Shown: piece after piece, positions 4,464 through 56,860 of the stretch
Layout of the letters: the number at the start of each line of letters is the position of its first letter
How positions within the stretch are numbered: the first letter of the stretch is position 1
Notes under the pieces: model-generated
The model's database searches: none
Told to the model about the DNA's origin: nothing
What the model saw: the letters and a program-made list of their open reading frames with translations, nothing else
NCBI GenBank assembly: GCA_964187785.1
Contig: OZ076409.1
Span: forward strand, 47,742,001 to 47,806,000
DNA from: Amphiscolops sp. MND2022
Taxonomy: Eukaryota
Direction of reading: 5' to 3'
DNA: 64,000 nt
Translations under genes and position numbers: made by a program

Positions 4464-5260
4464 CTTGTTTCACGGTGATTTCAGTTAACAACCACGCTTA
4501 ACAACAAAGAAAGAACGAATGCAAAGATACGGCAGCCTCCAGTGGGTTGCTGTTGGGTTTGAATCACCGTTGGATGCAAATGAGGGGGGCCTCTGCAGAT
4601 TGGTTTGCAAGACTGGAATTAGCGTGAACAGACAGATAACAGTGTTTGGAGAGCTTTGACACAGTTTGAATTACTGTCGACTTGCAAATGTCGTGAGTGC
4701 TTCAACACACGTTGAGACAAGGTCGGCCAAGGCGGCAGGAAGAAAAGAGGTCAACAATTAGTCAAGAGTCGTCGCCAAAGATGCAACAATCATCGTCAAG
4801 GGGTACATGCCCTGTGAGCTAGAAAGCCGACAAACAAGCCATATTTGCCTGTATACAACTTCAAACGATCTTCGTACCATTATAACTTGATATTAACATG
4901 CAAGAGCAATTGAAACAAGACCAACTGATCAACAGATTTTGTTCATTAAACTTAATGGTTTCCTTAAATAAAGACCTGATTTGTTTTGTTATTATTAAAT
5001 AATGATAAAGTCTAGGTTTTACAGAGCAAAGCAAGTATTTCGTGGGCGGTTCTTTTACGCACCTAGAAACATATCTCATAGAAAAGACAGACAGAAGAAA
5101 TGTTTTTTGATATATATAATTTGCGAGAAAGTAAGATTGAAATTTACAGGATGCCGGCACAAATTGAAGTCAAATATGAATAAACTTTTAATTCAAAGGA
5201 CTGAGAAATCTGGAATGAAATATTGAACACAATGCAAAAATTGAATGATTCAATAAATAC

Positions 5261-31200: not shown

Positions 31201-31325
31201 CAGTCGACCAATAAAAACAAAATTTTCAGAAAAAAGCTGCAATGATATACAGGTTTTGAAAATAATCAAATATAAACTTATTAAATATATAAACTTGTTT
31301 AACTAATATAAACTTAATAAAGTTT

Positions 31326-31553
31326 GTGATAAAATGCATGCTGTACAAGGACGAGGACGTTTGCCTAGCAAAACCCACAAGTGTGAAAAATGTACAACCA
31401 GTGTGGCCGACAACTCTGATGCAGTTGTGCTCAAAGTGCGTGAACTGGATCCATCTGGCCTGCAGTGACGTGACGAAAGAAGTATACCCCCGTCTCGGAA
31501 GAATCAAGGGATGCTTACGGTTCTGTGAGTCGGCTACGTGGAATCAGGTCTAA
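31326..31553 (+). pseudogene. PHD-finger remnant, probably ORF1 of an old CR1/L2 LINE (second copy at 29157-29384)
   Basis: CSKCVNWIHLACSDV..WFC / RFC spacing matches the second half of a PHD finger; co-linear with ORF1/endonuclease remnants at 33562-34546. Confidence 0.55.
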
Positions 31554-31684
31554 TGAAATAGATCTAAGAGAGAGGGCAAAACTGAAATCTAAATAAATTG
31601 ATCTAAATAATCAGGTCTAAAAATCTCTTCTAATTTGAGGAAAAAAATCAATTAGGATCTAAAACTAAAAAGTGATATAAAGTA

Positions 31685-34551: not shown

Positions 34552-36303
34552 TGTCGCAGGCTGCCGCCTGTGATGGCACATTAATAACGACGTCGGCGGA
34601 AAATCAAGAAATCATCCCGGGTACCCTACCCACGTTTTAAACTTTCCCTTGCTGAAACTTATATTTATTTGTTAATCACATTCATTTTTGTTTATTCAAG
34701 TGCATTTTATATAAGTGTTCGTGATATTAGTCTGTTAAAATTACGATTTGGAACTATCCAAATCAGGTTGTGATTTGAGATGTGTAAAAGGAAGTTTGTT
34801 GTATTACAAATAGAGTGTTGAAATTAATCAAAGCGGTAACGTACAATAAGCAGGTTGATCGCGAGAAGGAAACGTGTTCAAGTAAGAAAACGTCCCTTCT
34901 CGGCGATGTAACTTTCAGTACAATTATTAGCCAATCAGAGCTCTCCTTTTGCTAATTATGAGTGCTTTATTTATGATGGCCGGATATGGCTAATTGACTA
35001 AGCGGTGCTAATTTATATCAGTCCCCCAGTCAAATGGACGGCTTCGGCCAATTCGAGCATAATGATACTTTGTTGCCTAATTGGATCAATACTTACGCGG
35101 AGTTATTAGAATCATGTTTTTAGTTTAAATAAATACGTTTGTGATGTTTTGATGTTTGTATACCTTTAACTTGGATAAAGGGACGGTTAAGGCCTTTTAC
35201 CATGTCTTTCATATGCGCAGTACATGTTATGGATTTGGGCCTATTCCGGCCCTGATATGCGAGTGTATTTTCGTGAATATCGATGCAGTATTAGGATTCC
35301 ACACATAGTAATACATTCCGTTTTCAGCTTTATTTGCAGTAAACTTGTGCCGGCACGTGCCTTCAATTTACATCACAATAAAATATGTAAGTTGTGGTAT
35401 TTGTTTACATCACACTTGAAGTAGGTCTAACCGACAAATTGTTTGAAGTTGCTACTTAAAATGATGACTCCGAATACCATTCCTAAAATGTCCCCCGGAA
35501 ATATGTAGTTGTCGGGGATTTTCCTATGATGATTGTAAAATCCTATGATTTGTCTTGATCAAAGTATGTAAAAAATGTGTGTGTCATCCTTTCAGGGGTA
35601 TAAATACCCATACCCCTGCAGGAAGACTCATACTTTGTACTTCTCCCCATTTGATAAAGACGTTCACAATACAAACGGTTTCACTGTTAATTTTCCGGAA
35701 TTGATAATTCTAGTCTTGAACCCGGTTCAGTCTTAATGCCTACTACAAGAAAGCAAAAGAAAGCAAGAAAATCTAGAGGATTAGAAATTCTCTCTGACAT
35801 TGAAAACCTTGACATAATGTTAGGTGAAAATCACTTCAATGATACGAGGAGAGACGAAAGTCTCGATGGAAATTCCATTAGAAGGCAAGAAAGTATTATA
35901 AGTAATAACTTGGAAAATGAGGAAATGGATCTCCATTCTGACCATAGAAATCTTGGAGTTGGGACTAGTACCGGGTACGACCGAAATTCAGCAAGTATAG
36001 ATTCTCAAGCTGATATCAATAAGTTGACGAGTGAATTGAACTCTAGAATATCTAGAGAAATGGATGTAATGATGGACAGTGTTAGTTCTCAGATTCAGAG
36101 AGCCATAAGTGACGCTATAAATAATCAGGTTTTGCCCCAAATTCAAAACGTCATTATGGCCGGTTCAGGACAGGAGACTAGAAGGGGATGGGAGAGATCT
36201 GACGAGAGACCGGAAAGTTATTCCGAAGTTCAGTACAACGCGAAAACTAGAACTACCCTCAATAATGAACACGGTGATAAACCACACCGTTATGTTCATG
36301 ACA
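34552..36303 (+). repeat. 5' LTR (1752 bp)
   Basis: TGTCGCAGG...TTCATGACA; matches 55052-56804 at roughly 98% by manual comparison. Confidence 0.95.
35593..35635 (+). promoter_or_regulatory. LTR core promoter (TATA box and Inr-like site)
   Basis: TATAAATA at 35599-35606 between inverted CAGGGGTA/TACCCCTG; TCATACT ~29 nt downstream; AGCCAATCAG CCAAT box at 34929. Confidence 0.6.
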
Positions 36304-37429
36304 TGGTGACAAGAGACAACGAATCTCCAAATCAAGTTCCTGAGTTTCTCACAGGACGAATCTCATCCAGAAATCACCTCGACAGGTCCTTTGAGGACAT
36401 CAACCTTGACACGACGATCCCAGCACAAGAGAGAATCACTACGGCTGCTGACTCTGACCCCAACACTCGACTGGCAGACGTCTTGACTACAATGCAGAAT
36501 AGACCGACAGCCCAACAACTTACCATACGCCCAGTCAACTCAAATACCATGACATTCGATGGCAAAAGCGAAAAATTCGAGCTGTTCGAAGACCTATTTC
36601 ACACTATGATCAAGATGCAGCCAGAAATGACTGAGCAAATGAAGATCAACCACCTCCACTCTTTATTGAGGAAGAATGCTCTTCAGACATTCAGAAATAT
36701 CAGCTCAAGCAACCGACAAACTCTAGAGGACGTATTAGTCATTTTTAGACGAAAATACGTCAAGCCCGAGTCACAGGCGACTGCCAAACATAAATGGCAC
36801 CGTCTGGTCTTCGATCCCAATACGATGAAACTGCCTGATTTTCTCGAAGAATTAAACCAGGGAGCCGAGAAGGCGTTTGGTGATCATGCGCAGAAAATGA
36901 TTGACAGCTTGCTTTATGCAAAACTGCCACCAAAACTGAAGCGGTCCGTCAACATGGCCAGATTAGAAAATGGCTCCTACGATGAGATAGTTGCTCATTT
37001 GGAGAGAGAATTAGAGCTTAACGCCCTCGAGGAGTCAGATGACCTACCAATGGCCACAATGACCTCCTCGACTACAAAATCTAAAACTCCTCTGTCAACT
37101 GGGCAAATGTCAGACATTACTTGCAATTACTGCAAGGCAAGGGCCACATGGTCAAGGACTGCGAAAAACTGAAAAAGAAAAAAGAAAAAGATGCCCAACA
37201 AAGCAAGTCGACGCTGAAGAAAACATATCCGGAGTGTGGCACTTGTGGGAAAAAGAACCACCCGGAGGAGAGATGTTGGCAAGGTGCTGGTGCACATCTT
37301 AAACCCAAGCGCACTAGACCTGAGGACTCAACTGACAAAAAGCCCAATCCCAAGGCTCAGAAACCTCAGACCAAACCGACATCATCGGGCTCCCAATCCT
37401 CATATTCTAATGATGAGTCAAAAAACTAA
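35736..37429 (+). CDS. gag: Gag with two CCHC knuckles; one 1-nt frameshift near 37137
   Basis: ORFs 35736-37172 and 37121-37429 join at CNYCK/GKGHMVKDC; second knuckle CGTCGKKNHPEERC; capsid-like TFDGKSEKFELFEDLF region. Confidence 0.88.
36304..36318 (+). promoter_or_regulatory. Putative primer-binding site
   Basis: TGGTGACAAGAG directly after the LTR-terminal CA; TGG pairs with tRNA CCA; cognate tRNA not identified. Confidence 0.6.
37420..37426 (+). promoter_or_regulatory. -1 ribosomal frameshift slippery site (gag-pol)
   Basis: A AAA AAC immediately before the gag TAA; the -1 frame is open from here into pol. Confidence 0.8.
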
Positions 37430-40400
37430 CTTCGCCACGACTCCAATATAACGAATTAATATCTGTCCGACAATACATCAGATCGGACCCTCCAATGCAG
37501 ACGTTCCACCAATACAATCAGCAATTGATGGGCTATCCCTCTGTTGTCTGGCAGCAGCAGATGGAAAAAGCTACCATCATCACCTTCAATAACACCCATT
37601 TGTTCCAGAAACCAATTCCTGTTTGGGACCCTGATTACACCACCACCTTCACTACCCGGTTCAGGCCCATTCCCCTGATCGATGATTACAATCCAACATA
37701 CATCGATCCAGACTACAACAGAGATCCCTACTGGGACACCGAGCTTTACAACCAAGATTCACTACAATTTCAATATGTCCTGGACGATATTGAACACTAT
37801 AATAGAACAGTCCACGAGAACCCTCCAATTACCCATAACAAGAAAACAAGAGCGCTAATTGAAAACTGGCAAATGAATGATGGCACAAACCATCCAGTGT
37901 TCCCAAACCCATTGGGGACCGAGACCCATGACAGCAATGCTGAACCCATACCACAATCATTGATAGACGAAAAACAGTTCCAAAATGTCTTAATCACTAG
38001 AGACGGTGAACCAGACTGTATACCCCTGTCAACCAACGTCAACCTCAAATGCAAAAAACGCATGTTGTATTTCCCAATGGACTTTGGGGAATTGACCATT
38101 GACGGACTCATTGACACTGGAGCGCTGTCCAGTGCAATTCCTGAAATGGACCTCCGGAAAATTCGACTTTTATCTCCACAATCCGTTATCCGGGAATGTC
38201 CGCCTCCGAACTTCCAAATCATGGTCGCTAATGGGCAACTGGAAACTCCTAAGAGTACCATAGAGCTCAAATTCGAAGTTGGTGACATTGAGTTCCATGA
38301 AATCTTCATAGTGATGGAACATCTGACAGGTCCGATCATTGGACTAATGTTCCTTCAAAGAAACCATACAGTTCTGGACATGAGACAAGGGATACTGAAT
38401 TTCCCGTTCTTTTCGATGCAGCTCAAAACGGCTGACCATAAATACTCAAATGTATTAGAACCAATTCTCAATCCTACTGAGATAACTATTCCGCCAAATG
38501 ATAAAGTCCTAATTAAGACCAATTCCCTACTCTACCCTGAGAATGCTGTCACTGGAATTCTGCAACCGAGCGACCTTCTACATGAAGAAGGCGACATCAC
38601 CTTTTGCCCAGCTTTGGTCACTCTGAATGATGGCAATATATTGATACCAGTGAACAATTTCACAGAACACCCCTATAAACTCAAAAAGGGACTACATATT
38701 GCCAATTTCTCCGTCATGACGCCAGAACAGATGAAGTATGTCAAACCGGTAGATCCGGCATCAACCTGGCACCTGTTGCAGAATGACCAGGAGCAAGCAG
38801 CCCATTACGTCAGCAGTCTCATCAAGACCAATAGAAATCCGCAAAACTCTGAAAATTATTGGTTCCCAACTCCAGAAAATCCTGGAAATCCGGAGGAACA
38901 CACACCTATACAAAAACGAATCCTACGCGAGTTACAGGCCCTACAGGACCTGGAGACACTCGACCCCACTACAGATGCAGAATCGCGTGCAAAATTCTTA
39001 GAAAACTTTGACTGGAAAGATTCCACACTTACTCCTGAAGAGAAGGAGAAAATTGAGGAATTGTTAGTGGAATTCCATGACATCTTTGCACGACACCGCT
39101 TTGATATAGGCATGAACGAGGTATTCAAGGTGAAACTGACGCCTAAGGACGATTCCCCAGCCTATAGTCAAAACCTTCCAGTTCCTATCAACTTGAAGGA
39201 GGACATCCTAGTCGAATTAGCCAGGTTACACAAATATGGCATAATAACCACACTGCCATTCTCGAAATATGCAAGTCCAATATTCGCACAAAAGAAGCCG
39301 AATGGGAAACTCCGACTCTTGGTTGACTTGAGAAAAATCAACAACCCCATCTCGGATGATTATATCAACAATAATCACCCCGTCAGTACACTAGTTGATG
39401 CTGCCCAACACTTGGCAGGCAAAAAACTGTTCTGTAAATTAGACTGCTCGCAGGCATACCACTGCCTACCAATGGCTGACCAACGTTCAATCGAAATGTT
39501 GGCTTTCAATTTTGCCAGTCGCACATTCGCTTACAGACGTTTGGCACAAGGCCTTAGTCGGTCACTATCCGCATTCTCGAGTTTTATTAGAGAATACCTT
39601 GACAAAGTCATTAAAGCGGATCAGTGTGCCCAGTATGTGGACGATATCGGCATTGCAGCCAATGATGTTGACCACCTCATGATGAACCTGAGAGCTACGT
39701 TCAAATGCATTCAGGAAGAAGGCCTTAAGTTAACAATGCACAAATGTCACTTCGGTGCAAAAGAAATTGATTTTCTCGGACGGACTATTACCCCACAAGG
39801 CGTCAAACCCCAGAAACAGAATGTGCACAACTTTCTGGAAAAGACTAAATTCTCGAAGTCGAAAAAGGCTTTACAGCGCTATTTGCGATTCCTAAACTAC
39901 TACAGGAATTATGTCCCAAGACTCTCCGAACGCCTTGCTCCATTCTACAAGATGCTCAAAAGTGACGAAAAGGTCCTAGTATCGAAAGAATTAGTCCAAC
40001 AATTCGAAGAAATCAATAGAGCACTAGACAAATGTTGCGACTTGGCCCTACAGCAACCCATTCCGAACAAGCAAATAGCACTAATGACTGATGCAAGTTT
40101 TGGTGCAGCCGGGTACGCGGTCCTAATCGAAGACGACCCAAGCCAGAAATTTACGTCACTCAGAAAAGCGTATGCACCAGTCGCTTATGGATCAAAAACT
40201 TTCACCCCAGCACAGATCAAAATGTCATATTATGCCAAATAATTCCTTGCAATTTATTTTGCATTCAAAGAATTCGGACATATTTTCTGGGGTGCGCCGA
40301 AACCGGTCATCATCCTTACAGACAACAAAGCTGTCACGAGATTTTTTCAAACAAAAATAATACCCCCAGCCCTGTGGAACGCGTGTGATTATGTCATTCA

Positions 40401-42633
40401 ATTCAATTTTGTCATAGCGCACATCCCGGGGGCACAAAATACCGCTGCTGACTATTTGTCCCGATTGGAAGCAGATCCGAAGGACAAATTGGTGATGAAA
40501 ATTCGCGAAGATGTACAAACACTACCAATCGAAATCAATGTCCAATCCGCAGGGGTGTCACAAGAAGAACAGATCTTCTACACCAATGACGACGATGAGA
40601 CAGAAGAACAGTATTGGGCAAGACAAGAAGCAATCAGAAAAAATCCAGCAACTGATGAGCCCACTGTTACTATACAAACTCTGTCAACAAATCTGGTCAA
40701 GCAACACCCCGATATACAAGTCCGATTGAGGAAGACGAACCAGATCATTATCGAGCAATCCAAAGATGCGGTACTAAAACAATTGAAAGCGAAACTGCTT
40801 CATGAAGAGTATTCAGAAAATCTACTGCACCAGGATGCCCGAAACAGACATTACGCAAACAATCTGGAACGAATTGTACATAAGGACGAAATCCCGACAA
40901 GGCAATACTTTGATGAAACAGGGAACGTTAAATACCATCAAATTCTGCTCCCGCAACATTTACTACAGGAATTGCTTCAGTCTCTTCACGGGACAGCGCA
41001 TAAACATCCTGGCATTTCGAAAAAGTTGCAGGAAATCCGACAAAGGTATTACTACCCTAGCATGGCTAAACACGTCAAAAAGTGGGTAGAAGGGTGCGAA
41101 CAATGTGCCAGAGACAAAAGAGTCCCTAACGCAACGATCACACCTGAACTGCTCAACTTGCCCGAATGGGACCTTGGACCTGAAGACGCCATGCAAATCG
41201 ACCTATTGCCGAACCTTCCGCCAAGTGGAGGATATGAAAATGTCCTAACGGCAATTGATGTATTCTCCAGATATTTGTTCGCCTATCCCCTTACGGACGC
41301 ATCAGCGATCAATGTAGCAAAAGCGCTCATTGACATTATGACTAAACACTCATATCTACCAACGACCCTTATCACTGATAAAGGTACTGCATTTACTTCT
41401 ACAATTATTGCGGAGGTTACGCAGATTTTGGGCATCACACTCAAATGCGCAACGACGAAACACCCGCAGACAATTGGGAAATTGGAGCGTACTCATGCCT
41501 CATTGAAAACAAATCTCAAAATGGCATGTGGAGAATATCGCCGCCAATGGCACAAATACTTGCCATTAGCAGTACTGAATCATAATACTAGTTATCACGC
41601 CAGCATCGGTTGTGAGCCAACGAGAATATTTCATGGAAGAAATCCAGTTAATATTTTGGATCACAAGCTTGGAAATAATCCAAGCGAGCAAATTAACCCC
41701 ACAACCGAATTTGCTGAAGAAATCCAAAACCGGACAAAAATCCTGATTGACAAAACGAAACAGAACATTATTCAGTCGTATATTAAGTACAAAGAATATT
41801 ATGACCGCAAAGCAAAAGCCGCTCCACTAAAGGAGAACGAATACTGTTTTGTCTTACAGCCGAAAGCGGATAATCAAGGATCAAAAATTCCATTCCGCGA
41901 TTACCGTTGGGTTGGACCATTTGTAGTCCAAAATGTTTTGCCAAATGAAAACTATATAGTACGACGGATCAATACGAACAAAACTCAAATTTTGCATCGC
42001 ATTCGTCTTAAGAAGTTTGTCCCCAATCAACCGCTTGAGGATAATTTCCTAGAACAACAGTTGCAGCCAGATGAAGAAATTGTCATTCCGCAAGATGATT
42101 TATATGTCATAACGTGGGAAACCGACTTTGGCGAGCAACTAGTTACACGAGGCAACGAGACTATTCCGACCAGCATGCCGAATGGCGAACAGCCTAATGC
42201 GCCAGAAGCGAATACAAATGACGTAGCCGGGAACGAAGCGGATTACATAACCACGAGTGACGAAACAAGTTACGCTGACCACGCGGCGCGAAGCCGGAAT
42301 GAAAGATTAAATCATGACGTCACAAAAAGGAATGAAGATAGTGAAGCGGCTAGCAATGACAAATCTCATTGGCCGAATCCGGCCGTTCACCCGAAAAATC
42401 AAGAAAAAACTTTGGCGAATACGGATGAAAGACCAAAAAATGACGAAATTCCCTCAGAAAGAAATTTGACGAATGAAAACGACGCACAAAATTCTCCAAA
42501 AAGGGGGGATGATATTATCGTGCCCGAAATATCTGAAAGCGATGCTAGAAATGAGAGTCTGAGCCCTAGAGGAGGGAAATATAATCTCAGACCTAACCCC
42601 AACCCAAACTACTCAGAAGACTACAGATACTAG
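37420..42633 (+). CDS. pol: Pol polyprotein (protease, dUTPase-like spacer, RT, RNase H, integrase); one premature stop at 40240-40242
   Basis: LIDTGA; LRLLVDLRKIN, KLDCSQAY, QYVDD; TDASF..AK*FLA..LTDNKA..AADYLSR; H-H-C-C, QIDLL, ITDKG, KLERTH, GPF; ORFs 37495-40242 and 40456-42633 are in the same frame. Confidence 0.95.
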
Positions 42634-42880: not shown

Positions 42881-45800
42881 TTAGTCTTTAGTAACGCTAG
42901 ACTGAGGAGATACAGTAGCAGAAGAAGCAGAGGACCGAGACGCCCTGCGTTCCATCTTCCTTCGTTTCTTACTACTAGGGGCCTTTACAGCAGGATCATC
43001 AGCGACAGAACCAGCATCCCCGGAATCAATTTGGACAGAGATTCTCTCTGGAGTAGATGACGCAATGCGGCAGGAAGCCAACAAGGACTTGTAAGTTTTT
43101 GAGCGCCCAAAGGTGTCAACATATGTCCAGGGGTCATATTCTTCAGCAAAAGCGGAACGTCCAAAGGAAGAAGATAGAAGGGAAAAGCTAGCCAAGTTGT
43201 CATCATTACTACAGAAAGGCACGGAATCACGGACATTGGCAAGATAACTTTGGCAAGGGAGAATGACATCGGTGAAGCGATTCTGACAGTGGTAACTGTG
43301 CCAAACGTAACGTCAGGGAGGGCTAAACTCACAGAGGTTGCACATAGACAGCACAGCTTGAATAAGTGGAACAGGTGCGCCCGGTCCTGCAAGAACTCAA
43401 GTCCAACCAGGAACTCTATCAGATCTGAGGAGGTACTAGTCAGATCGAAATTGGGACCATAACTAGTCCGTAAGTGGTCCAGTAGCTGCATGTACTGGTC
43501 CCGGCACAGAGACTCATTGGCACTTGGGACCCAAGAACGGAGGGCAAAGGTGTTATACAGCATGTCAAAATGCTTCAGAGCAACGTCCATCGGCCTTTTA
43601 AACATGATGAATGGGTCGAAAGCAGCCAACCCTTTTGCTATGTTGCTTGTCAGCCCAACTCGTTTCAGGACCTCATTGATGAGGAACTGCACATACTGCT
43701 GGCTGTCCTTGACGAAGGCTGTTTTTACCGTCCCTGCGGTGGCCTGTATGGCTGGACGCTCAGACTTCTTTCCAAAGTGGATGCCCTCTGCTCGAGCCCT
43801 GCTAGCTGTCCCTACGCGATTAGACAATTTGAGCCTGACCAGGTATTCATCTTCAGGCAGGAATGTCCCTTCACTGGTCTGGAATCGGAGGAGCAAGAAC
43901 CAGGCATTCTCTAAGGGAACTGTGTCTGGAGTGTAGACCCGGGAACAGAGCAGGCTGACGAATCGACTGACTTCCCCGCAGAGATAGAATGAGGCGTCAC
44001 GCTTATACTGCAGATTCACAGCGAAACTGGTGACATCTAGAAACACAAAATAATGCCCAAATACGAAATGTAACCTAACACAACCTCCCCGCCGAAATAT
44101 ACTCACAGTCACTGACGAGCTTGCGGAAGAATTCCAGTTTGACGACAAAGAATTCGTCACAAATCAAGGACCATTCGAAGCTCTGCACCTGGAATGAAAG
44201 ATCACCCTTACTACGGCGCATAAAGTCCGAAGGACAAACAAGGACTAGGGAAACCCCTTATGAATAAGCCTGTCTAACTGGAATAAAACGTATGGCTCAA
44301 CAGAAAGCTAACCCTGTTGCGAGATCCTTGGCCTTCCTGCAGGGGAGCGTGTGCCGTCAGGTAGCGTAGCACTGACTTCCATTCATCTAACAATGCCTGG
44401 CAAAGAGTGGGCAAGGTTTTGACCTCGAGCTGACAGGTGGTGATAGCCTGTAAACCCACATGGCCAGATGAACTTTGAATATTAGATCCCGAGACTCGCT
44501 ACCCCCATCCCTTTTACCAATTAGGACCACAAAAGAAAGGAAATGTGCCATTGGTTTACTTACCCTAACGAGTTCCGGATGACGCATCACCCAATCTTCG
44601 ACAAGGGAACCACCCAGACTGACCATCAGGGCTTGCAACACCGAGAAGAAGTCTATGTGCCCAAACACGGAGTAGCTCGTCTTATGCATGAGTCTTGCCA
44701 GCGAAAGGTGCTCAAAACGGAAACAACTCTGGACTCCTTGGGTGAAGTACTCTGATTGGTCGATCGTTTTGGCGAATTCAACTGGGCACCCTGAGCATGC
44801 GACCATATCGGGCCGTGTGGAAACTGCTGACTGGAATCGAGCTAGTGACCCCAGTTCCCCAGTCACATCAGTCGCGGGAAGAGAACTTCGGCAGACGTAG
44901 ACCCTACAGAGCTCTAGCTGCTTCCAGTATTTGACTGACATGCATTGGTTGGAACCAATCGTCTCGAATTCGACTGGGAAGCACTGTTGAGTGGACACTT
45001 GCTCAGCGATGTCATGTAGTGCACAGATGAAGAAGTGCTGGAATATGGCCTGAAACGGAACCTAAACCTCAGTACAGGGTAAAGTTCGGAAGAAACATTG
45101 AGGCTTAAAAGACACTACTTACAGTGAGGCGTTCCTCCCCCCAATCGAAATCAGTCACCGTGGCTTGATGGTTGGTGAATGACCCCATCCGTGACCATAA
45201 GTTTCTCAATACCATCATGTCTCCTTGGGTTTTCGCAAAATCTCCCACGAGACAGAGTTGAGTTTTGGCTCTGGATTCTGCTGTGACCAGTGCTGTGGTG
45301 GAGCCCTTGATGTAGTCATCATAAAAGGGGAACCGTTCCCCGATGTCCACCAGTTCTTCATTGATGAAATGAGGAAGTGCCTTTGCCAGCTCCATTTTAC
45401 TCAAGATCTTCCCATTGGCTCCTCGGACTCTATGTTGCACCTTACCCGTGACAGGATCCGTGCTTCGCAGGTGCTCATACCGCCAACGCTGGTTGCGGCG
45501 TAAATGCCGTTGCGTGCGATGATGTCTAAGGATTTCATACGGGCCTTTCGATCTGATAGAAAAGTTCTTTTTACAAATGTGGCACCAGACCATCAAAGGA
45601 TTGTGGACAGGATCGGCAGGTCCTGAGATGAAAGATCTAGTCGAACCTATTTTTGAGAAGAACTCCTCTTTCATGGGACTCCCCGTCTTGAGGGCCTCCG
45701 GTCATTTTTTCCGTTTTTTGGGCCTGGAGGTGGTCCGTGCCGTGGTCCGAGTTTGCTCCCTCAGCTCCTGTAGGGTGGTGTCTTGACTGCTGAACTCTGA

Positions 45801-47277
45801 TGTGTCCGGCTCATTCTGCTGCTGACCAGAAGAAGGTTGGGCTTCGGTTGAAACTTGCAGTGGGGCAGCAGGTTTTTTGAAGGACCGATTTATTAGGTCC
45901 ATCTCTGTGGCACTGTCGCTCTCCTCATAATAAGATGACTCCCCAGTGCCCTCTGAAGATGAGTCAGGTTGGCGTGTAGTAGTTGCTGTTCCTTCTCCTT
46001 CGGATTCCGTCCCACTTGAATCGCTAGAAACTCTGCGCATGGGGGTCTGACAACGACCCTTGGAAAGGAAATGAGCAGTGCGGGAAGGAGCGACGGTGGG
46101 AGAACCCCGAACAGCGTCAATAACCATTCGCTCCATGGTAGAAAATGACCGGTTGAGCGTCTCATCAGTCATAACCCTGAGAAGGTGATATATTTGAGGC
46201 TCAGTGAAGGCAACGGTGGAATGCCCCACAGGAAGACGGATTGGGGCGGCTTCATCAAAATACTCCTTCAAAATTGCCCTACTCCGCCAGGAGAGGTCTG
46301 AAGGCCTACTTTGGGTAGGTTGTGCTCGGGGTGCAAAGTCCTTGCTTGTTCCAGGAATCAGCATCTCGGAACTTGTATCATCTCCGCCTTCAGTTCCCGA
46401 CTCAGGGTGAAAGGGGTTAAAGCCATACAAGGCAACAGGATTCACTTGGCTGACTTCATCGGCAGTTTTCTCCTCATCACTCTGTCCCCCTAGGAAGTGG
46501 ACATGAGGTGCCATTCCAGGCAGAGCGGGCACGTCACAGATTGATGAAGCATTCTCATCGTCCGTTCTGGAAGGAGCCCCGCTAATGTTGGCCATCTCAG
46601 GGTCAGTTCTGTCCCGCAACTCTGGTAGCTGAGACTCAGATGTCACGATAATTTGGAGTGCCGACTCTAAGGCTGACAAATCAGCTTGACAGGGCTCTTC
46701 ATCTTCCTCGGACATGATGGGGGTACTTGACCTCCGGACCGCGGGGTCATCGGATGTTGCCGGAGTAGCTTCAACGGTTGGAGGGATTTCGGCGTTCGTA
46801 CCAGAGGGCGAACCGCCCACTTGTTGTGGGGCAGATTCTTGGTGTCGTTCCATCTTCTGGACCATAGCTTCGGCATATGCAGTGACGTCAGTGCTGCTGC
46901 CCTGACTGTTGATGGGACTGTCTTTCTCAATAGTTGCTGGAGACAGGCCTGCATTGTCTACTTGAGGCCTTACAGGATCAGAAGATGAACCTTCTGGATT
47001 GGCATGGACACTGGCTTGGGACGTGGTTGGCTCGAGAGCATTCTTTTTCGGAAGATTTTCTAAACGAAAAGGAATGAAATTTAGCGGTGTACTTCCTTGA
47101 TATGAATCCATTTTACCGCGATTAGAAACCTTCCGGAAGTGTCTGACAAATTCGAATGAAACGTGTTATCACGTGTTTAGTGATGGAAACAGGAAGTGTA
47201 TTTTGAACAAATTTGACCCTGATCAAGTTAAATGAGTTCTAAAATGAAAATCCAAACCAACCTGAGTCAGAAGACAT
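42881..47277 (-). CDS. Antisense spliced accessory gene: disordered N-terminus, BED zinc finger, hAT-transposase-like body, ~1270 aa; two lesions in this copy
   Basis: Exons 47277-47262, 47059-45123, 45049-44564, 44447-44313, 44188-44107, 44036-42881; GT-AG introns of 202, 73, 116, 124 and 70 bp, all phase-compatible; VWCHICKKNFSI..EILRHHRTQRH; in-frame TGA at 45702-45704 and frameshift near 43288. Confidence 0.78.
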
Positions 47278-48174
47278 GTCGCTGGGGTTCTGATCTGCTA
47301 AACGCTGGTCCAAGCGGGAACGATTGCTGGAAACTGGGGAAATGGCCGGGTATGGCAAGAAAGGAAGAGATTATTCCGACGAAGAAAGAAATACAGCTAA
47401 GACGGGGATAAGAATGGGGTAAATGTTGATGAAGCAAATCCAAAGTGAAAGGAACAAATGAAATATAAATAGAATTGAAATGGAATTAAAATTGGGTAAA
47501 GAATTGAAGAAATTGGGAAGTTGGAGTTCGTGGCTGAAGATTATTACCAGACTAATATTATGGATTATCTACACATTTATTCTGTACATGGAGTCTGCCA
47601 GCGAAGTGTACAAAGGACTTTGTTATTTACAGCCTATTTAATTAAAAGCCAGTTATGGCCGTTTGCCCTGTTTTGTTTTGTTGTTTCGTCCAGTTGCCCT
47701 AGTTACCCTTAGTTAGAATTTTCGCCATCTTGGATTATCCAGATTTATTATTTTCGCCATTTTTGTTATTTAATTTTACAATTTATCGAAGCTTAACGCT
47801 GATTGGATGAATCCATTACGAGAAATTTTGGTGACGCGTGCCGCTAATTGCTTACAAGCGGTCCGTTAATTACCCACTTGAGACGGGTGTAGTTGATATT
47901 CGTAGGACGAGCGTCATTCACACCTCTTCTAGTGATGACACTGATAAGGGGTAAACATCAGGTTATCAAAGGGAGCCGCCTAATCATGGAATTCCATTCA
48001 GAAAAGTTTACGATGGATCGGGACGATTAACCTAAGGTTCTCCCGCCGAGCTGGAAAGTTCGGGAAAAGGCCTGATTCGGCTAAATTATTAAAACTGACA
48101 AATTCATTCTACTACAAACTCCTCTTCGATACAGTCACTACGAATAGCTTCAAAAATATAAAAAAAAGATAATC
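47278..48174. promoter_or_regulatory. Divergent intergenic region between the antisense gene and ORF3
   Basis: Two TTTTCGCCAT(C/T)TT motifs (47719, 47751), CTGATTGG at ~47800; CTGAC branch-like site (48095), pyrimidine tract and CAG (48134) upstream of the ORF3 ATG. Confidence 0.45.
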
Positions 48175-48960
48175 ATGAGCAAATACAACTTAGCTAGAAG
48201 ATTGTTCGAGCTGGAGGAATACGACTCAGATGATTCTGAAAGATCAGTAATATACATTTCCAGCAGTGAGGAAGAGTCATCAAACTGGGAAACCGACTGC
48301 TCCACAGACACGGAGCAGCTTATCGCAAGAATCGAAAGGGAGGTCACCTCCAGCCCCATGCTAATTGGGGGCCGCATAATGACTATGGAGGAACCTTTAG
48401 GAGACGAATCAGAAGCTGGCCCCAGTTCTTCCCAGATGCGAACAGATGTGACTCCGAAATTTGACCACAGGTACTTTGACCAGGAGATGTGTTATGCTCC
48501 CACAATGAAGTTGGGAAAGTCAAGGATAGAGGTTTGCAAGACTCTATTACCAGTGCCAGAGTCACCCATGTCACCGCCTGACCATGAGAGAGGGCCAAGT
48601 TTGGACACCCCCCTGATGCAGCCTACAATAGGTGGTTTTCACGCGTCGTTCCACGTACAGAACACAAGGCCGTACGAGGACGTGAGCAACAAACTGTATT
48701 CTGGTTGTATGGTGTGTGGCAGATCCTCAGAAGCAATAAAGAAAGAGAAAGTAGAATGGTATGTTGCAAGGTCCAAGCCACGAGGAGAGCCTGAGTACAT
48801 CACGAAAATCAGAATAGAAGCATACGAGAACGGTCTCAACGCCGGGGCATTCCTCTTCATAACACCCGCAGTGTCGCAGGCTGCCGCCTGTGATGGCACA
48901 TTAAAAACGACGTCGGCAGAAAATCAAGAAATCATCCCGGGTACCCTACCCACGTTTTAA
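48175..48960 (+). CDS. Retrotransposon accessory ORF3, 261 aa, unknown function, copy 1
   Basis: Intact ATG-TAA ORF in env position, ending inside LTR sequence; acidic Ser-rich N-terminus, CMVC motif; no signal peptide or transmembrane helix seen. Confidence 0.75.
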   Translation: MSKYNLARRLFELEEYDSDDSERSVIYISSSEEESSNWETDCSTDTEQLIARIEREVTSSPMLIGGRIMTMEEPLGDESEAGPSSSQMRTDVTPKFDHRYFDQEMCYAPTMKLGKSRIEVCKTLLPVPESPMSPPDHERGPSLDTPLMQPTIGGFHASFHVQNTRPYEDVSNKLYSGCMVCGRSSEAIKKEKVEWYVARSKPRGEPEYITKIRIEAYENGLNAGAFLFITPAVSQAAACDGTLKTTSAENQEIIPGTLPTF

Positions 48961-49719
48961 ACTTTCCCTTGCTGAAACTTATATTTATTTGTTAATCACA
49001 TCCATTTTTGTTTATTCAAGTGCATTTTATATAAGTGTTCGTGATATTAGTCTGTTAAAATTACGATTTGGAACTATCCAAATCAGGTTGTGATTTGAGA
49101 TGTGTAAAAGGACGTTTGTTGTATTACAAATAGAGTGTTGAAATTAATCAAAGCGGTAACGTACAATAAGCAGGTTGATCGCGAGAAGGAAACGTGTTCC
49201 AGTAAGAAAACGTCCCTTCTCGGCGATGTAACTTTCAGTACAATTATTAGCCAATCAGAGCTCTCCTTTTGCTAATTATGAGTGCTTTATTTATGATGGC
49301 CGGATATGGCTAATTGACTAAGCGGTGCTAATTTATATCAGTCCCCCAGTCAAATGGACGGCTTCGGCCAATTCGAGCATAATGATACCTTTGTTGCCTA
49401 ATTGGACCAATACTTACGCGGAGTTATTAGAATCATGTTTTTAGTTTAAATAAATACGTTTGTGATGTTTTGATGTTTGTATACCTTTAACTTGGATAAA
49501 GGGACGGTTAAGGCCTTTTACCATGTCTTTCATATGCGCAGTACATGTTATGGATTTGGGCCTATTCCGGCCCTGATATGCGAGTGTATTTTCATGAATA
49601 TCGATGCAGTATTAGGATTCCACACATAGTAATACATTCCGTTTTCAGCTTTATTTGCAGTAACTCCTCTTCGATACAGTCACTACGAATAGCTTCAAAA
49701 ATATAAAAAAAAGATAATC

Positions 49720-50505
49720 ATGAGCAAATACAACTTAGCTAGAAGATTGTTCGAGCTGGAGGAATACGACTCAGATGATTCTGAAAGATCAGTAATATAC
49801 ATTTCCAGCAGTGAGGAAGAGTCATCAGACTGGGAAACCGACTGCTCCACAGACACGGAGCAGCTTATCGCAAGAATCGAAAGGGAGGTCACCTCCAGCC
49901 CCATGCTAATTGGGGGCCGCATAATGACTATGGAGGAACCTTTAGGAGACGAATCAGAAGCTGGCCCCAGTTCTTCCCAGATGCGAACAGATGTGACTCC
50001 GAAATTTGACCACAGGTACTTTGACCAGGAGATGTGTTATGCTCCCACAATGAAGTTGGGAAAGTCAAGGATAGAGGTTTGCAAGACTCTATTACCAGTG
50101 CCAGAGTCACCCATGTCACCGCCTGACCATGAGAGAGGGCCAAGTTTGGACACCCCCCTGATGCAGCCTACAATAGGTGGTTTTCACGCGTCGTTCCACG
50201 TACAGAACACAAGGCCGTACGAGGACGTGAGCAACAAACTGTATTCTGGTTGTATGGTGTGTGGCAGATCCTCAGAAGCAATAAAGAAAGAGAAAGTAGA
50301 ATGGTATGTTGCAAGGTCCAAGCCACGAGGAGAGCCTGAGTACATCACGAAAATCAGAATAGAAGCATACGAGAACGGTCTCAACGCCGGGGCATTCCTC
50401 TTCATAACACCCGCAGTGTCGCAGGCTGCCGCCTGTGATGGCACATTAAAAACGACGTCGGCAGAAAATCAAGAAATCATCCCGGGTACCCTACCCACGT
50501 TTTAA
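49720..50505 (+). CDS. Accessory ORF3, copy 2
   Basis: Same protein as copy 1 except N>D in SSDWE. Confidence 0.72.
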   Translation: MSKYNLARRLFELEEYDSDDSERSVIYISSSEEESSDWETDCSTDTEQLIARIEREVTSSPMLIGGRIMTMEEPLGDESEAGPSSSQMRTDVTPKFDHRYFDQEMCYAPTMKLGKSRIEVCKTLLPVPESPMSPPDHERGPSLDTPLMQPTIGGFHASFHVQNTRPYEDVSNKLYSGCMVCGRSSEAIKKEKVEWYVARSKPRGEPEYITKIRIEAYENGLNAGAFLFITPAVSQAAACDGTLKTTSAENQEIIPGTLPTF

Positions 50506-51264
50506 ACTTTCCCTTGCTGAAACTTATATTTATTTGTTAATCACATCCATTTTTGTTTATTCAAGTGCATTTTATATAAGTGTTCGTGATATTAGTCTGT
50601 TAAAATTACGATTTGGAACTATCCAAATCAGGTTGTGATTTGAGATGTGTAAAAGGACGTTTGTTGTATTACAAATAGAGTGTTGAAATTAATCAAAGCG
50701 GTAACGTACAATAAGCAGGTTGATCGCGAGAAGGAAACGTGTTCCAGTAAGAAAACGTCCCTTCTCGGCGATGTAACTTTCAGTACAATTATTAGCCAAT
50801 CAGAGCTCTCCTTTTGCTAATTATGAGTGCTTTATTTATGATGGCCGGATATGGCTAATTGACTAAGCGGTGCTAATTTATATCAGTCCCCCAGTCAAAT
50901 GGACGGCTTCGGCCAATTCGAGCATAATGATACCTTTGTTGCCTAATTGGACCAATACTTACGCGGAGTTATTAGAATCATGTTTTTAGTTTAAATAAAT
51001 ACGTTTGTGATGTTTTGATGTTTGTATACCTTTAACTTGGATAAAGGGACGGTTAAGGCCTTTTACCATGTCTTTCATATGCGCAGTACATGTTATGGAT
51101 TTGGGCCTATTCCGGCCCTGATATGCGAGTGTATTTTCATGAATATCGATGCAGTATTAGGATTCCACACATAGTAATACATTCCGTTTTCAGCTTTATT
51201 TGCAGTAACTCCTCTTCGATACAGTCACTACGAATAGCTTCAAAAATATAAAAAAAAGATAATC

Positions 51265-52050
51265 ATGAGCAAATACAACTTAGCTAGAAGATTGTTCGAG
51301 CTGGAGGAATACGACTCAGATGATTCTGAAAGATCAGTAATATACATTTCCAGCAGTGAGGAAGAGTCATCAGACTGGGAAACCGACTGCTCCACAGACA
51401 CGGAGCAGCTTATCGCAAGAATCGAAAGGGAGGTCACCTCCAGCCCCATGCTAATTGGGGGCCGCATAATGACTATGGAGGAACCTTTAGGAGACGAATC
51501 AGAAGCTGGCCCCAGTTCTTCCCAGATGCGAACAGATGTGACTCCGAAATTTGACCACAGGTACTTTGACCAGGAGATGTGTTATGCTCCCACAATGAAG
51601 TTGGGAAAGTCAAGGATAGAGGTTTGCAAGACTCTATTACCAGTGTCAGAGTCACCCATGTCACCGCCTGACCATGAGAGAGGGCCAAGTTTGGACACCC
51701 CCCTGATGCAGCCTACAATAGGTGGTTTTCACGCGTCGTTCCACGTACAGAACACAAGGCCGTACGAGGACGTGAGCAACAAACTGTATTCTGGTTGTAT
51801 GGTGTGTGGCAGATCCTCAGAAGCAATAAAGAAAGAGAAAGTAGAATGGTATGTTGCAAGGTCCAAGCCACGAGGAGAGCCTGAGTACATCACGAAAATC
51901 AGAATAGAAGCATACGAGAACGGTCTCAACGCCGGGGCATTCCTCTTCATAACACCCGCAGTGTCGCAGGCTGCCGCCTGTGATGGCACATTAAAAACGA
52001 CGTCGGCAGAAAATCAAGAAATCATCCCGGGTACCCTACCCACGTTTTAA
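51265..52050 (+). CDS. Accessory ORF3, copy 3
   Basis: As copy 2 with P>S (PVSES). Confidence 0.72.
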   Translation: MSKYNLARRLFELEEYDSDDSERSVIYISSSEEESSDWETDCSTDTEQLIARIEREVTSSPMLIGGRIMTMEEPLGDESEAGPSSSQMRTDVTPKFDHRYFDQEMCYAPTMKLGKSRIEVCKTLLPVSESPMSPPDHERGPSLDTPLMQPTIGGFHASFHVQNTRPYEDVSNKLYSGCMVCGRSSEAIKKEKVEWYVARSKPRGEPEYITKIRIEAYENGLNAGAFLFITPAVSQAAACDGTLKTTSAENQEIIPGTLPTF

Positions 52051-52809
52051 ACTTTCCCTTGCTGAAACTTATATTTATTTGTTAATCACATCCATTTTTG
52101 TTTATTCAAGTGCATTTTATATAAGTGTTCGTGATATTAGTCTGTTAAAATTACGATTTGGAACTATCCAAATCAGGTTGTGATTTGAGATGTGTAAAAG
52201 GACGTTTGTTGTATTACAAATAGAGTGTTGAAATTAATCAAAGCGGTAACGTACAATAAGCAGGTTGATCGCGAGAAGGAAACGTGTTCCAGTAAGAAAA
52301 CGTCCCTTCTCGGCGATGTAACTTTCAGTACAATTATTAGCCAATCAGAGCTCTCCTTTTGCTAATTATGAGTGCTTTATTTATGATGGCCGGATATGGC
52401 TAATTGACTAAGCGGTGCTAATTTATATCAGTCCCCCAGTCAAATGGACGGCTTCGGCCAATTCGAGCATAATGATACCTTTGTTGCCTAATTGGACCAA
52501 TACTTACGCGGAGTTATTAGAATCATGTTTTTAGTTTAAATAAATACGTTTGTGATGTTTTGATGTTTGTATACCTTTAACTTGGATAAAGGGACGGTTA
52601 AGGCCTTTTACCATGTCTTTCATATGCGCAGTACATGTTATGGATTTGGGCCTATTCCGGCCCTGATATGCGAGTGTATTTTCATGAATATCGATGCAGT
52701 ATTAGGATTCCACACATAGTAATACATTCCGTTTTCAGCTTTATTTGCAGTAACTCCTCTTCGATACAGTCACTACGAATAGCTTCAAAAATATAAAAAA
52801 AAGATAATC

Positions 52810-53595
52810 ATGAGCAAATACAACTTAGCTAGAAGATTGTTCGAGCTGGAGGAATACGACTCAGATGATTCTGAAAGATCAGTAATATACATTTCCAGCA
52901 GTGAGGAAGAGTCATCAGACTGGGAAACCGACTGCTCCACAGACACGGAGCAGCTTATCGCAAGAATCGAAAGGGAGGTCACCTCCAGCCCCATGCTAAT
53001 TGGGGGCCGCATAATGACTATGGAGGAACCTTTAGGAGACGAATCAGAAGCTGGCCCCAGTTCTTCCCAGATGCGAACAGATGTGACTCCGAAATTTGAC
53101 CACAGGTACTTTGACCAGGAGATGTGTTATGCTCCCACAATGAAGTTGGGAAAGTCAAGGATAGAGGTTTGCAAGACTCTATTACCAGTGCCAGAGTCAC
53201 CCATGTCACCGCCTGACCATGAGAGAGGGCCAAGTTTGGACACCCCCCTGATGCAGCCTACAATAGGTGGTTTTCACGCGTCGTTCCACGTACAGAACAC
53301 AAGGCCGTACGAGGACGTGAGCAACAAACTGTATTCTGGTTGTATGGTGTGTGGCAGATCCTCAGAAGCAATAAAGAAAGAGAAAGTAGAATGGTATGTT
53401 GCAAGGTCCAAGCCACGAGGAGAGCCTGAGTACATCACGAAAATCAGAATAGAAGCATACGAGAACGGTCTCAACGCCGGGGCATTCCTCTTCATAACAC
53501 CCGCAGTGTCGCAGGCTGCCGCCTGTGATGGCACATTAAAAACGACGTCGGCAGAAAATCAAGAAATCATCCCGGGTACCCTACCCACGTTTTAA
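52810..53595 (+). CDS. Accessory ORF3, copy 4
   Basis: Same protein as copy 2. Confidence 0.72.
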   Translation: MSKYNLARRLFELEEYDSDDSERSVIYISSSEEESSDWETDCSTDTEQLIARIEREVTSSPMLIGGRIMTMEEPLGDESEAGPSSSQMRTDVTPKFDHRYFDQEMCYAPTMKLGKSRIEVCKTLLPVPESPMSPPDHERGPSLDTPLMQPTIGGFHASFHVQNTRPYEDVSNKLYSGCMVCGRSSEAIKKEKVEWYVARSKPRGEPEYITKIRIEAYENGLNAGAFLFITPAVSQAAACDGTLKTTSAENQEIIPGTLPTF

Positions 53596-54354
53596 ACTTT
53601 CCCTTGCTGAAACTTATATTTATTTGTTAATCACATCCATTTTTGTTTATTCAAGTGCATTTTATATAAGTGTTCGTGATATTAGTCTGTTAAAATTACG
53701 ATTTGGAACTATCCAAATCAGGTTGTGATTTGAGATGTGTAAAAGGACGTTTGTTGTATTACAAATAGAGTGTTGAAATTAATCAAAGCGGTAACGTACA
53801 ATAAGCAGGTTGATCGCGAGAAGGAAACGTGTTCCAGTAAGAAAACGTCCCTTCTCGGCGATGTAACTTTCAGTACAATTATTAGCCAATCAGAGCTCTC
53901 CTTTTGCTAATTATGAGTGCTTTATTTATGATGGCCGGATATGGCTAATTGACTAAGCGGTGCTAATTTATATCAGTCCCCCAGTCAAATGGACGGCTTC
54001 GGCCAATTCGAGCATAATGATACCTTTGTTGCCTAATTGGACCAATACTTACGCGGAGTTATTAGAATCATGTTTTTAGTTTAAATAAATACGTTTGTGA
54101 TGTTTTGATGTTTGTATACCTTTAACTTGGATAAAGGGACGGTTAAGGCCTTTTACCATGTCTTTCATATGCGCAGTACATGTTATGGATTTGGGCCTAT
54201 TCCGGCCCTGATATGCGAGTGTATTTTCATGAATATCGATGCAGTATTAGGATTCCACACATAGTAATACATTCCGTTTTCAGCTTTATTTGCAGTAACT
54301 CCTCTTCGATACAGTCACTACGAATAGCTTCAAAAATATAAAAAAAAGATAATC

Positions 54355-55140
54355 ATGAGCAAATACAACTTAGCTAGAAGATTGTTCGAGCTGGAGGAAT
54401 ACGACTCAGATGATTCTGAAAGATCAGTAATATACATTTCCAGCAGTGAGGAAGAGTCATCAGACTGGGAAACCGACTGCTCCACAGACACGGAGCAGCT
54501 TATCGCAAGAATCGAAAGGGAGGTCACCTCCAGCCCCATGCTAATTGGGGGCCGCATAATGACTATGGAGGAACCTTTAGGAGACGAATCAGAAGCTGGC
54601 CCCAGTTCTTCCCAGATGCGAACAGATGTGACTCCGAAATTTGACCACAGGTACTTTGACCAGGAGATGTGTTATGCTCCCACAATGAAGTTGGGAAAGT
54701 CAAGGATAGAGGTTTGCAAGACTCTATTACCAGTGTCAGAGTCACCCATGTCACCGCCTGACCATGAGAGAGGGCCAAGTTTGGACACCCCCCTGATGCA
54801 GCCTACAATAGGTGGTTTTCACGCGTCGTTCCACGTACAGAACACAAGGCCGTACGAGGACGTGAGCAACAAACTGTATTCTGGTTGTATGGTGTGTGGC
54901 AGATCCTCAGAAGCAATAAAGAAAGAGAAAGTAGAATGGTATGTTGCAAGGTCCAAGCCACGAGGAGAGCCTGAGTACATCACGAAAATCAGAATAGAAG
55001 CATACGAGAACGGTCTCAACGCCGGGGCATTCCTCTTCATAACACCCGCAGTGTCGCAGGCTGCCGCCTGTGATGGCACATTAAAAACGACGTCGGCAGA
55101 AAATCAAGAAATCATCCCGGGTACCCTACCCACGTTTTAA
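54355..55140 (+). CDS. Accessory ORF3, copy 5 (runs into the complete 3' LTR)
   Basis: Same protein as copy 3; last 89 nt lie within the 3' LTR. Confidence 0.72.
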   Translation: MSKYNLARRLFELEEYDSDDSERSVIYISSSEEESSDWETDCSTDTEQLIARIEREVTSSPMLIGGRIMTMEEPLGDESEAGPSSSQMRTDVTPKFDHRYFDQEMCYAPTMKLGKSRIEVCKTLLPVSESPMSPPDHERGPSLDTPLMQPTIGGFHASFHVQNTRPYEDVSNKLYSGCMVCGRSSEAIKKEKVEWYVARSKPRGEPEYITKIRIEAYENGLNAGAFLFITPAVSQAAACDGTLKTTSAENQEIIPGTLPTF

Positions 55141-56804
55141 ACTTTCCCTTGCTGAAACTTATATTTATTTGTTAATCACATCCATTTTTGTTTATTCAAG
55201 TGCATTTTATATAAGTGTTCGTGATATTAGTCTGTTAAAATTACGATTTGGAACTATCCAAATCAGGTTGTGATTTGAGATGTGTAAAAGGACGTTTGTT
55301 GTATTACAAATAGAGTGTTGAAATTAATCAAAGCGGTAACGTACAATAAGCAGGTTGATCGCGAGAAGGAAACGTGTTCCAGTAAGAAAACGTCCCTTCT
55401 CGGCGATGTAACTTTCAGTACAATTATTAGCCAATCAGAGCTCTCCTTTTGCTAATTATGAGTGCTTTATTTATGATGGCCGGATATGGCTAATTGACTA
55501 AGCGGTGCTAATTTATATCAGTCCCCCAGTCAAATGGACGGCTTCGGCCAATTCGAGCATAATGATACCTTTGTTGCCTAATTGGACCAATACTTACGCG
55601 GAGTTATTAGAATCATGTTTTTAGTTTAAATAAATACGTTTGTGATGTTTTGATGTTTGTATACCTTTAACTTGGATAAAGGGAGGGTTAAGGCCTTTTA
55701 CCATGTCTTTCATATGCGCAGTACATGTTATGGATTTGGGCCTATTCCGGCCCTGATATGCGAGTGTATTTTCATGAATATCGATGCAGTATTAGGATTC
55801 CACACATAGTAATACATTCCGTTTTCAGCTTTATTTGCAGTAAACTTGTGCCGGCACGTGCCTTCGTTTTACATCACAATAAAATATGTAAGTTGTGGTA
55901 TTTGTTTACATCACACTTGAAGTAGGTCTAACCGACAAATTGTTTGAAGTTGCTACTTAAAATGATGACTCCGAATACCATTCCTAAAATGTCCCCCGGA
56001 AATATGTAGTTGTCGGGGATTTTCCTATGATGATTGTAAAATCCTATGATTTGTCTTGATCAAAGTATGTAAAAATTGTGTGTGTCATCCTTTCAGGGGT
56101 ATAAATACCCATACCCCTGCAGGAAGACTCATACTGTGTACTTCTCCCCATTTGATAAAGACGTTCATAATGCAAACGGTTTCACTGTTAATTTTCCGGA
56201 ATTGATAATTCAAGTCTTCAACCCGGTTCAGTCTTAATGCCTACTACAAGAAAGCAAAAGAAAGCAAGGAAAACTAGACGATTAGAAATTCTCTCTGACA
56301 TTGAAAACCTTGACATAATGTTGGGTGAAAATCACTTCAATGACACGAGGAGAGACGAAAGTTTCGATGGAACTTCCATTAGAAGGCAAGAAAGTATTAT
56401 AAGTAATAACTTGGAAAATGAGGAAATGGATTTCCATTCTGACCATAAAAATCTTGGAGTTGGGACTAGTACCGGGTACGACCGAAATTCAGCAAGTATA
56501 GATTCTCAAGCTGAGATCAATAAGTTGTCGAGTGAATTGAACTCTAGAATATCTAGAGAAATGGATGTAATGAGGGACAGTGTTAGTTCTCAGATTCAGA
56601 GAGCCATGAGTGACGCCATAAATAATCAGGTTTTGCCCCAGATTCAAAACGTCATTATGGCCGGTTCAGGACAGGAGACTGGAAGGGGATGGGAGAGATC
56701 TGACGAGAGACCGGAAAGTTATTCCGAAGTTCAGTACAACGCGAAAACTAGAACTACCCTCAATAATGAACACGGTGATAAACCACACCGTAATGTTCAT
56801 GACA
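55052..56804 (+). repeat. 3' LTR (1753 bp)
   Basis: TGTCGCAGG...TTCATGACA followed by ATTAC. Confidence 0.95.
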
Positions 56805-56860
56805 ATTACCAATCAAGCCCATTATCTCGTACTACTTATTCTTTTACCAGATGTGATTAA
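56237..56860 (+). other. LTR-encoded copy of the Gag N-terminus reading into flanking DNA (207 aa)
   Basis: First ~189 aa nearly identical to the 35736 ORF; diverges exactly at the LTR end. Confidence 0.8.

Follow-up and report, generated by a model that had tools for sequence, protein, structure and literature searches.

A Ty3/gypsy retrotransposon in the window described here, 64,000 nucleotides of Amphiscolops sp. MND2022 (contig OZ076409.1, positions 47,742,001 to 47,806,000), carries a six-exon gene in antisense orientation at 47277-42881, between its integrase and its 3' long terminal repeat (LTR). That this antisense gene is real, under selection, and spliced is close to certain, and comparisons with other copies in the 1.07-Gb eukaryotic assembly show that it moves between elements as one block. 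The fuller reading that we prefer is tentative: the gene, which is clade-wide, selected, and exchanged as a block, would encode a protein, likely a catalytically dead transposase of the hAT type, that works in the nucleus for the element, as an activator that binds DNA or as an anti-silencing factor. An earlier note on this DNA had proposed an intron-containing antisense gene in the element; the block exchange, a likely second start, a 261-aa open reading frame (ORF) across a promoter-like block from the gene, and the likely transposase origin are points beyond it.

The gene is read from the minus strand. Exon 1 (47262-47277) is only 16 nt long and carries the ATG; the ATG, the length, and the GT donor are kept in 19 of 19 aligned sequences. 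Intron 1 (47060-47261, 202 nt) is unusually conserved. Exon 2 (45123-47059) encodes the N-terminal region, a basic stretch, and a C2H2 finger, and is broken near 45,700 in the window copy. Short introns separate the exons that follow: intron 2 (45050-45122) has 73 nt, with 69-100 nt across families, and intron 3 (44448-44563) has 116 nt, with 74-146 nt across families, on either side of exon 3 (44564-45049). Exon 4 (44313-44447) has 135 nt and exon 5 (44107-44188) has 82 nt in all 15 distant copies compared; between them lies intron 4 (44189-44312, 124 nt), which is cleanly absent in one family. After intron 5 (44037-44106, 70 nt), exon 6 (42881-44036) encodes a helical domain followed by a basic, serine-rich tail, and is broken near 43,290 in the window copy. 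The intron phases (1, 0, 0, 0, 1) are consistent with one continuous frame. The earlier note had joined the minus-strand ORFs through five phase-correct GT-AG introns, and its coordinates, donors, AG acceptors, and phases are all exact; the family-level ORF of about 1270 aa that it expected fits the exon columns shared among copies, which amount to 3819 nt, a multiple of three and about 1270 codons. Directly after the stop codon (42880-42830, minus strand), an alignment of 13 diverged loci shows a TGTACATATGTA motif and GTAAACTTTGTT in 12 of them, possibly as a 3' untranslated region or RNA element.

Conservation of the splice sites carries the case for splicing. In 20 close copies the splice dinucleotides are kept at 196 of 200 positions. 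Among 15 distant copies those of introns 2-5 are kept at 118 of 120, whereas 49 other GT or AG dinucleotides within the same introns, used as a control, are kept in only 122 of 735 cases. The interiors of introns 2-5 fall to 26-58% identity, compared with 56-84% for the exons, and exons 4 and 5 and the tested part of exon 6 each have a single length in the 15 distant copies while the introns vary. The intron positions are also shared by sixteen loci of five groups that lie further away, with exon 6 at 52-60% identity; the introns there measure 71-146 nt, and three splice sites are off register, in damaged copies. Introns 2-5 therefore have the GT-AG ends, free interiors, consistent phase, and exact presence or absence of spliceosomal introns; intron 1 shares the conserved ends, but its interior is constrained.

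The exact absence concerns intron 4. Three of 36 distant loci, all of one family (L093-L095), have exon 4 joined precisely to exon 5, and a far relative (P0166) likewise reads exon 4 straight into exon 5, so the difference could be a loss or a gain. It implies either recombination with the cDNA of a spliced antisense mRNA or the gain of an intron inside a retroelement. Taken together, conservation and the exact intron difference indirectly support splicing at the level of sequence. Chance joining of unrelated ORFs is rejected by the retention of splice dinucleotides relative to the control and by the clean absence of intron 4. The genomic RNA of a retroelement reads antisense introns backwards, so that they remain unspliced and are retained through reverse transcription; it is the antisense orientation that shields the introns. 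The proposal that orientation lets the element keep a spliced gene thus agrees with established biology, and with the intron positions shared by families whose exon-6 proteins are 52-60% identical.

Intron 1 keeps 74-97% identity while the other introns decay. A second in-frame ATG at 47111 opens the last 52 nt of this intron. In all 19 sequences compared this segment is open and 52 nt long; the part upstream varies from 146 to 151 nt. Conserved motifs within the intron are ones that we take to be ETS-, E-box-, and YY1-like. Intron 1 may be used alternatively, and because the ATG segment and exon 1 with its donor are each kept in all 19 sequences, the gene likely makes two N-termini, by analogy with the deltaretroviral protein HBZ in its spliced and its unspliced form. 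Upstream of exon 1 lies a conserved promoter-like block (47520-47830, minus strand); the bin at 47500 is 76-94% identical across 19 loci, and the block has CCAAT and a repeated AAAATGGCG. On the far side of the block, in a head-to-head arrangement with this gene, a second accessory ORF of 261 aa (48175-48960, plus strand) extends into LTR sequence. It has no Pfam family, is conserved across families at 49-92% identity, and is under purifying selection.

The antisense gene is widespread in the genome. A search with exon 6 yields at least 150 loci from 6721 candidates, and a search with another family of the gene yields 101. All 36 distant loci fetched have the same exon order, and an integrase in the opposite orientation adjoins the gene in 35 of them (not in L047). 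In one copy (L043:1189-3428) the gene is partly duplicated in tandem. There are 197 near relatives in protein collections, which at 50% identity contain 663 clusters; the 120 relatives listed of the 197, and 10 that were looked up, are unnamed ENA entries. The most distant relatives are 23-35% identical, and a metagenome scan gave no relative.

Third codon positions are two to three times more variable than first and second positions, the ratio of nonsynonymous to synonymous change (dN/dS), measured by region against six diverged copies, is 0.04-0.31, and the protein stays conserved beyond synonymous saturation. The earlier note counted two lesions in the window copy's gene, which should be corrected to three: near 45,700, two small indels that compensate each other and give rise to the stop, and, near 43,290, a small deletion. 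Such damage could suggest a neutral passenger that the element copies with itself, either a gene fragment or a nested DNA transposon in decay, since the gene is broken in the window copy and in all 20 close copies. Yet pol is equally broken in the same 20 copies, the antisense lesions are not the same in different copies, and low dN/dS, conservation past synonymous saturation, and splice sites kept relative to the control all speak for selection; the passenger explanation is rejected on these selection data and has next to no probability. Lesions in both the gene and pol of every close copy fit decay after insertion. Of the 20 close copies, 13 have two whole LTRs, and these pairs are 98-99% identical; the tested parts of exons 2-6 are all open in 21 of 36 distant loci; with the copy-specific lesions and the equal damage to pol, this supports the earlier suggestion of a gene still intact when the element inserted.

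Evidence for exchange comes from the contrast between the gene and its surroundings. Identity to the window falls at about 42,700 and returns at about 47,500; two loci (L052 and L060) match the window at 82-97% in pol and 89-94% beyond 47500, but at 51-75% in the antisense gene. In many elements the integrase core has a synonymous divergence (dS) of 0.13-0.5 while the antisense exons are synonymously saturated. Distances among the exons correlate with one another (rho 0.74-0.81), whereas exon and integrase distances give a rho of 0.15-0.16 (permutation p 0.05-0.08). Of 45 pairs whose integrase is near-identical, 30 have exon 6 more than 25% apart, and the integrase has diverged in 7 of 21 pairs with close exon 6, counts that describe loci picked for exon 6 diversity rather than genome frequencies. 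Distances in the promoter-like block follow the integrase (rho 0.50) more than the antisense gene (rho 0.24-0.33).

The diversity of alleles is more likely driven by conflict with the host or with rival elements, or simply by recombination that is limited to the conserved flanks. A DNA code specific to each allele is unlikely, because the finger is the most conserved part of the protein and the promoter block follows the integrase over the gene; a lock-and-key of this kind was rejected on those two grounds. The gene could instead be a competition or addiction factor, with alleles that restrict rival elements or hinder loss of their own, possibly paired with the 261-aa ORF and kept by balancing selection. 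Very old alleles on near-identical backbones, and a second conserved but variable ORF head to head with the gene, would suit such a system. The two genes nevertheless travel separately: their distances correlate at a rho of 0.32-0.38, and L052 and L060 have the window's 261-aa ORF at 92% identity but a different antisense allele. A competition factor is improbable.

The layout of the protein suggests where the gene came from. The N-terminal region (exon 2) is long, acidic, and rich in serine, threonine, and proline, and is followed by the basic stretch and the finger (CxxC...HxxxxxH, about 45590-45504), which is near-invariant in 19 sequences. Exon 3 is predicted, with low confidence, to form a helix, three strands, two helices, and a strand, the order of an RNase H-like core, and exon 6 is modeled as helical and resembles the insertion and C-terminal regions of hAT transposases. 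By eye, the finger, the strand-rich core, and the helical domain follow one another as they do in the hATs of the host, whose genome has many such elements (150 loci listed), several with open frames of 600-700 aa. Two methods add to this likeness. Feature matches in the Atlas that have families are hAT C-terminal or FAM200/GTF2IRD2 (0.90-0.91), and the feature neighbors carry the C-terminal dimerization domain PF05699, for which Pfam itself gives no match; the recognition value of 2261 is slightly below the tool's mark. In a wide structure search, residues 9-240 of the exon-6 model align to residues 377-573 of the Hermes transposase over 138 residues (Z 4.8, root-mean-square deviation 4.3), by far the longest alignment of 50 rows, and the alignment ends at what we take to be the third catalytic residue. 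An origin from a hAT transposase is therefore probable, although the link falls short of statistical support and comes from two weak, independent methods.

Several results, along with the failure of the lock-and-key above, weigh against the preferred reading. Hermes ranks only 30th, at a Z score common by chance. The exon 3 model, a poor one, has a predicted local distance difference test score (pLDDT) of 44 and a best Z of 4.2, with no hAT among the matches listed. Pfam finds no BED finger (zf-BED) in 19 family members and no hAT domain or other informative family in 71, 61, 19, or 82 members. A profile search against the host hAT ORFs gives nothing above reversed decoys, hhalign against host hATs gives probabilities of 0.2% and 0.1% (with a shallow hAT alignment of 12 sequences), and Foldseek and VIA give nothing clear for the exon-6 model. 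Other searches were also negative: the Atlas has no usable match for exon 3, PDB sequence searches have none, and exon 6 has no longer homologues among the proteins of 925-2640 aa searched. Exon 3 has 13 longer homologues, all of them family members that mostly read through an in-frame intron 2. No terminal inverted repeats surround the gene among the 25 longest inverted repeats of the window, short repeats not having been searched. The motifs that we take as diagnostic of hATs (the catalytic DDE triad, CxxH, and ERxFS) are seen in the host hATs. In the antisense gene DxW/DE, TD, CxxH, and ERxFS are missing at matching places; the catalytic positions, placed by eye, have Glu at the first, Ser-Gly at the second, and no conserved acid near the third. 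Missing canonical motifs, on this by-eye placement, rule out an active hAT transposase.

The gene might instead be selected but derive from a host C2H2-finger gene or another source, with the resemblance to hATs due to chance. Every sequence-profile test for hAT is negative, as this would predict, and the introns fit capture of any gene from genomic DNA; on the other hand, the two weak methods are independent and point to hAT in the expected C-terminal part, and no copy lies outside elements among the loci fetched, which do not include the most distant relatives. Such an origin is unlikely, if less so than the competition factor.

In the preferred reading, an ancestral element would have taken up, in reverse orientation, a hAT transposase gene with its introns, and these introns, carried backwards in the genomic RNA, would have escaped splicing and survived reverse transcription. 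The separate promoter at about 47520-47830 would drive a spliced antisense mRNA, with the start in intron 1 giving another N-terminus. The cutting chemistry would have been lost while the finger and scaffold were retained; the finger would bind a motif common to the families, and the acidic N-terminal region would recruit host transcription machinery. Template switching within the conserved flanks would swap whole alleles, and old alleles would be maintained, perhaps by a conflict with the host. There is precedent for accessory regulators derived from transposases, and for transposases that switch on copies of their own kind (bioRxiv 10.64898/2026.08.24.746577), and nuclear products of antisense ORFs are known for Grande and HTLV (PMC7264820). 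By this analogy the protein may regulate transcription of its element, a role to which we give slightly less than even odds.

Basic stretches at both ends of the protein and the conserved finger could also suit a real gene that acts at integration or nuclear entry, where the finger and a dimer scaffold would tether the pre-integration complex to chromatin or protect cDNA ends. Transposase scaffolds are known to bind DNA ends, and a role in nuclear import has been proposed for plant antisense ORFs (PMC7264820). A tight physical partner of the integrase would not be expected to be decoupled from it (rho 0.15), however, and the N-terminal region, long and acidic as it is, has more the look of an activation domain, so this role seems improbable too. 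The boldest form of the preferred reading, in which a clade of retrotransposons domesticated an entire DNA transposase gene, introns included, in antisense, disarmed it, and made it its own trans-acting regulator, with many ancient alleles swapped as a cassette among near-identical gag-pol backbones under balancing selection, is possible but rather doubtful. If true, it would be a domestication from class II to class I in which the accessory locus is hypervariable, and the hundreds of genomic copies would be a natural record of intron loss within a retroelement.

The element itself has the paired TG...CA LTRs, target-site duplication, and protease, reverse transcriptase, RNase H, and integrase order of Ty3/gypsy. 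Alignment with 20 close copies places the 5' LTR (1752 bp) at 34552-36303; the 3' LTR (55052-56804, plus strand like the other parts below) is 98.1% identical to it (1719/1752), and a 5-bp target duplication, ATTAC, flanks the LTRs. A TGG motif resembling a primer-binding site (36304-36315) lies directly 3' of the 5' LTR. The gag frame (35691-37172; DUF1759 in Pfam, and CCHC knuckles) is disrupted near its 3' end. Since the LTR limits drawn from the close copies are longer than first apparent, the gag start falls inside the LTR: the frame begins with about 570-610 nt within the 5' LTR (35691-36303) and continues through the primer-binding site, and the gag-start frame recurs in the 3' LTR at 56192-56860. 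The pol frame (37417-42633, by Pfam) has a single stop near 40240. The 20 nt preceding the 3' LTR (55032-55051) are not a purine-rich polypurine tract, other placements not having been searched. Five tandem 1545-bp units at 48117-55841, each with the 261-aa ORF and the 5' part of the LTR, show 0-2 differences among the first four; the array is not seen in the 20 other close copies and could have arisen by recent amplification or as an artifact of assembly.

Elsewhere in the window, an unbroken frame of 1395 aa (9473-13660, minus strand) encodes an hnRNP Q acidic domain and RNA recognition motifs, and a short-chain dehydrogenase frame without introns lies at 3666-4469 (minus strand). Another reverse transcriptase frame (26266-28194, plus strand) is near duplicated 2-kb segments at 28239-32400. 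A short repeat, probably of a family like miniature inverted-repeat transposable elements, is dispersed across 1-23000 in many copies and both orientations.

Plants and fungi are known to have antisense accessory ORFs located between pol and the 3' LTR (PMC11963269; PMC7264820), and the origin and role of such ORFs in LTR retrotransposons are posed as open questions in PMC7264820. The case described here supplies a candidate origin, a transposase. It also shows that retroelements can retain multi-intron genes long enough for synonymous saturation, and it offers many alleles and young copies as material for tests of function. Annotation tools seeking only long ORFs would miss such genes. In the open-access literature, with supplements, subscription papers, and repeat databases aside, no LTR retrotransposon with an antisense gene of several introns was found, and none is described in the accessible part of PMC13547354. 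Introns are likewise undescribed for antisense ORFs of this position (aORF-3R), the word "intron" being absent from the main text of PMC11963269, and a search for spliced antisense transcripts is only called for in the available part of PMC7264820. The multi-intron spliced antisense gene is thus new, with a plausible but unproven transposase origin, while antisense accessory ORFs and spliced antisense genes were already known separately.

Among animals, bdelloid rotifer LTR elements carry diverse captured ORF3s, which are described as expressed from spliced messages as env is; the accessible text describes no antisense intron-containing gene among them (PMC5408684). Deltaretroviruses have spliced antisense mRNAs for HBZ and APH-2/3/4, nuclear regulators of transcription of their own element, and the spliced and unspliced forms of HBZ differ at the N-terminus (PMC10186651). 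The deltaretroviral proteins are small, their promoter lies in the 3' LTR, and their genes overlap sense genes; the gene described here has an internal promoter-like block, dedicated non-overlapping introns, and a large, unrelated protein. VANC of VANDAL and TnpA of Spm are element-encoded accessory factors proposed to activate their own families, and the DNA-binding domain of TnpA is derived from a transposase (bioRxiv 10.64898/2026.08.24.746577); both belong to plant DNA transposons, and their likeness to the gene is one of analogy. The hAT transposases (Hermes, and ZMYM1/ZNF862/FAM200/GTF2IRD2-like proteins) share its order of finger, core, and helical domain and give weak feature and fold matches; the gene differs from them in having no catalytic motifs, no significant profile match, and a retroelement as its carrier. 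By position and orientation the gene qualifies as an aORF-3R, a group that includes maize Grande gene23, rice RIRE2, Retand/PRARE TRP28 (PF04195), and Botrytis Boty. It lacks the PF04195 domain of Retand TRP28, for which Pfam gives no match in the window ORFs or in 71, 61, 19, or 82 relatives, and it stands apart from the group as a whole in its roughly 1270 codons, five introns, C2H2 finger, and exchange as a block.

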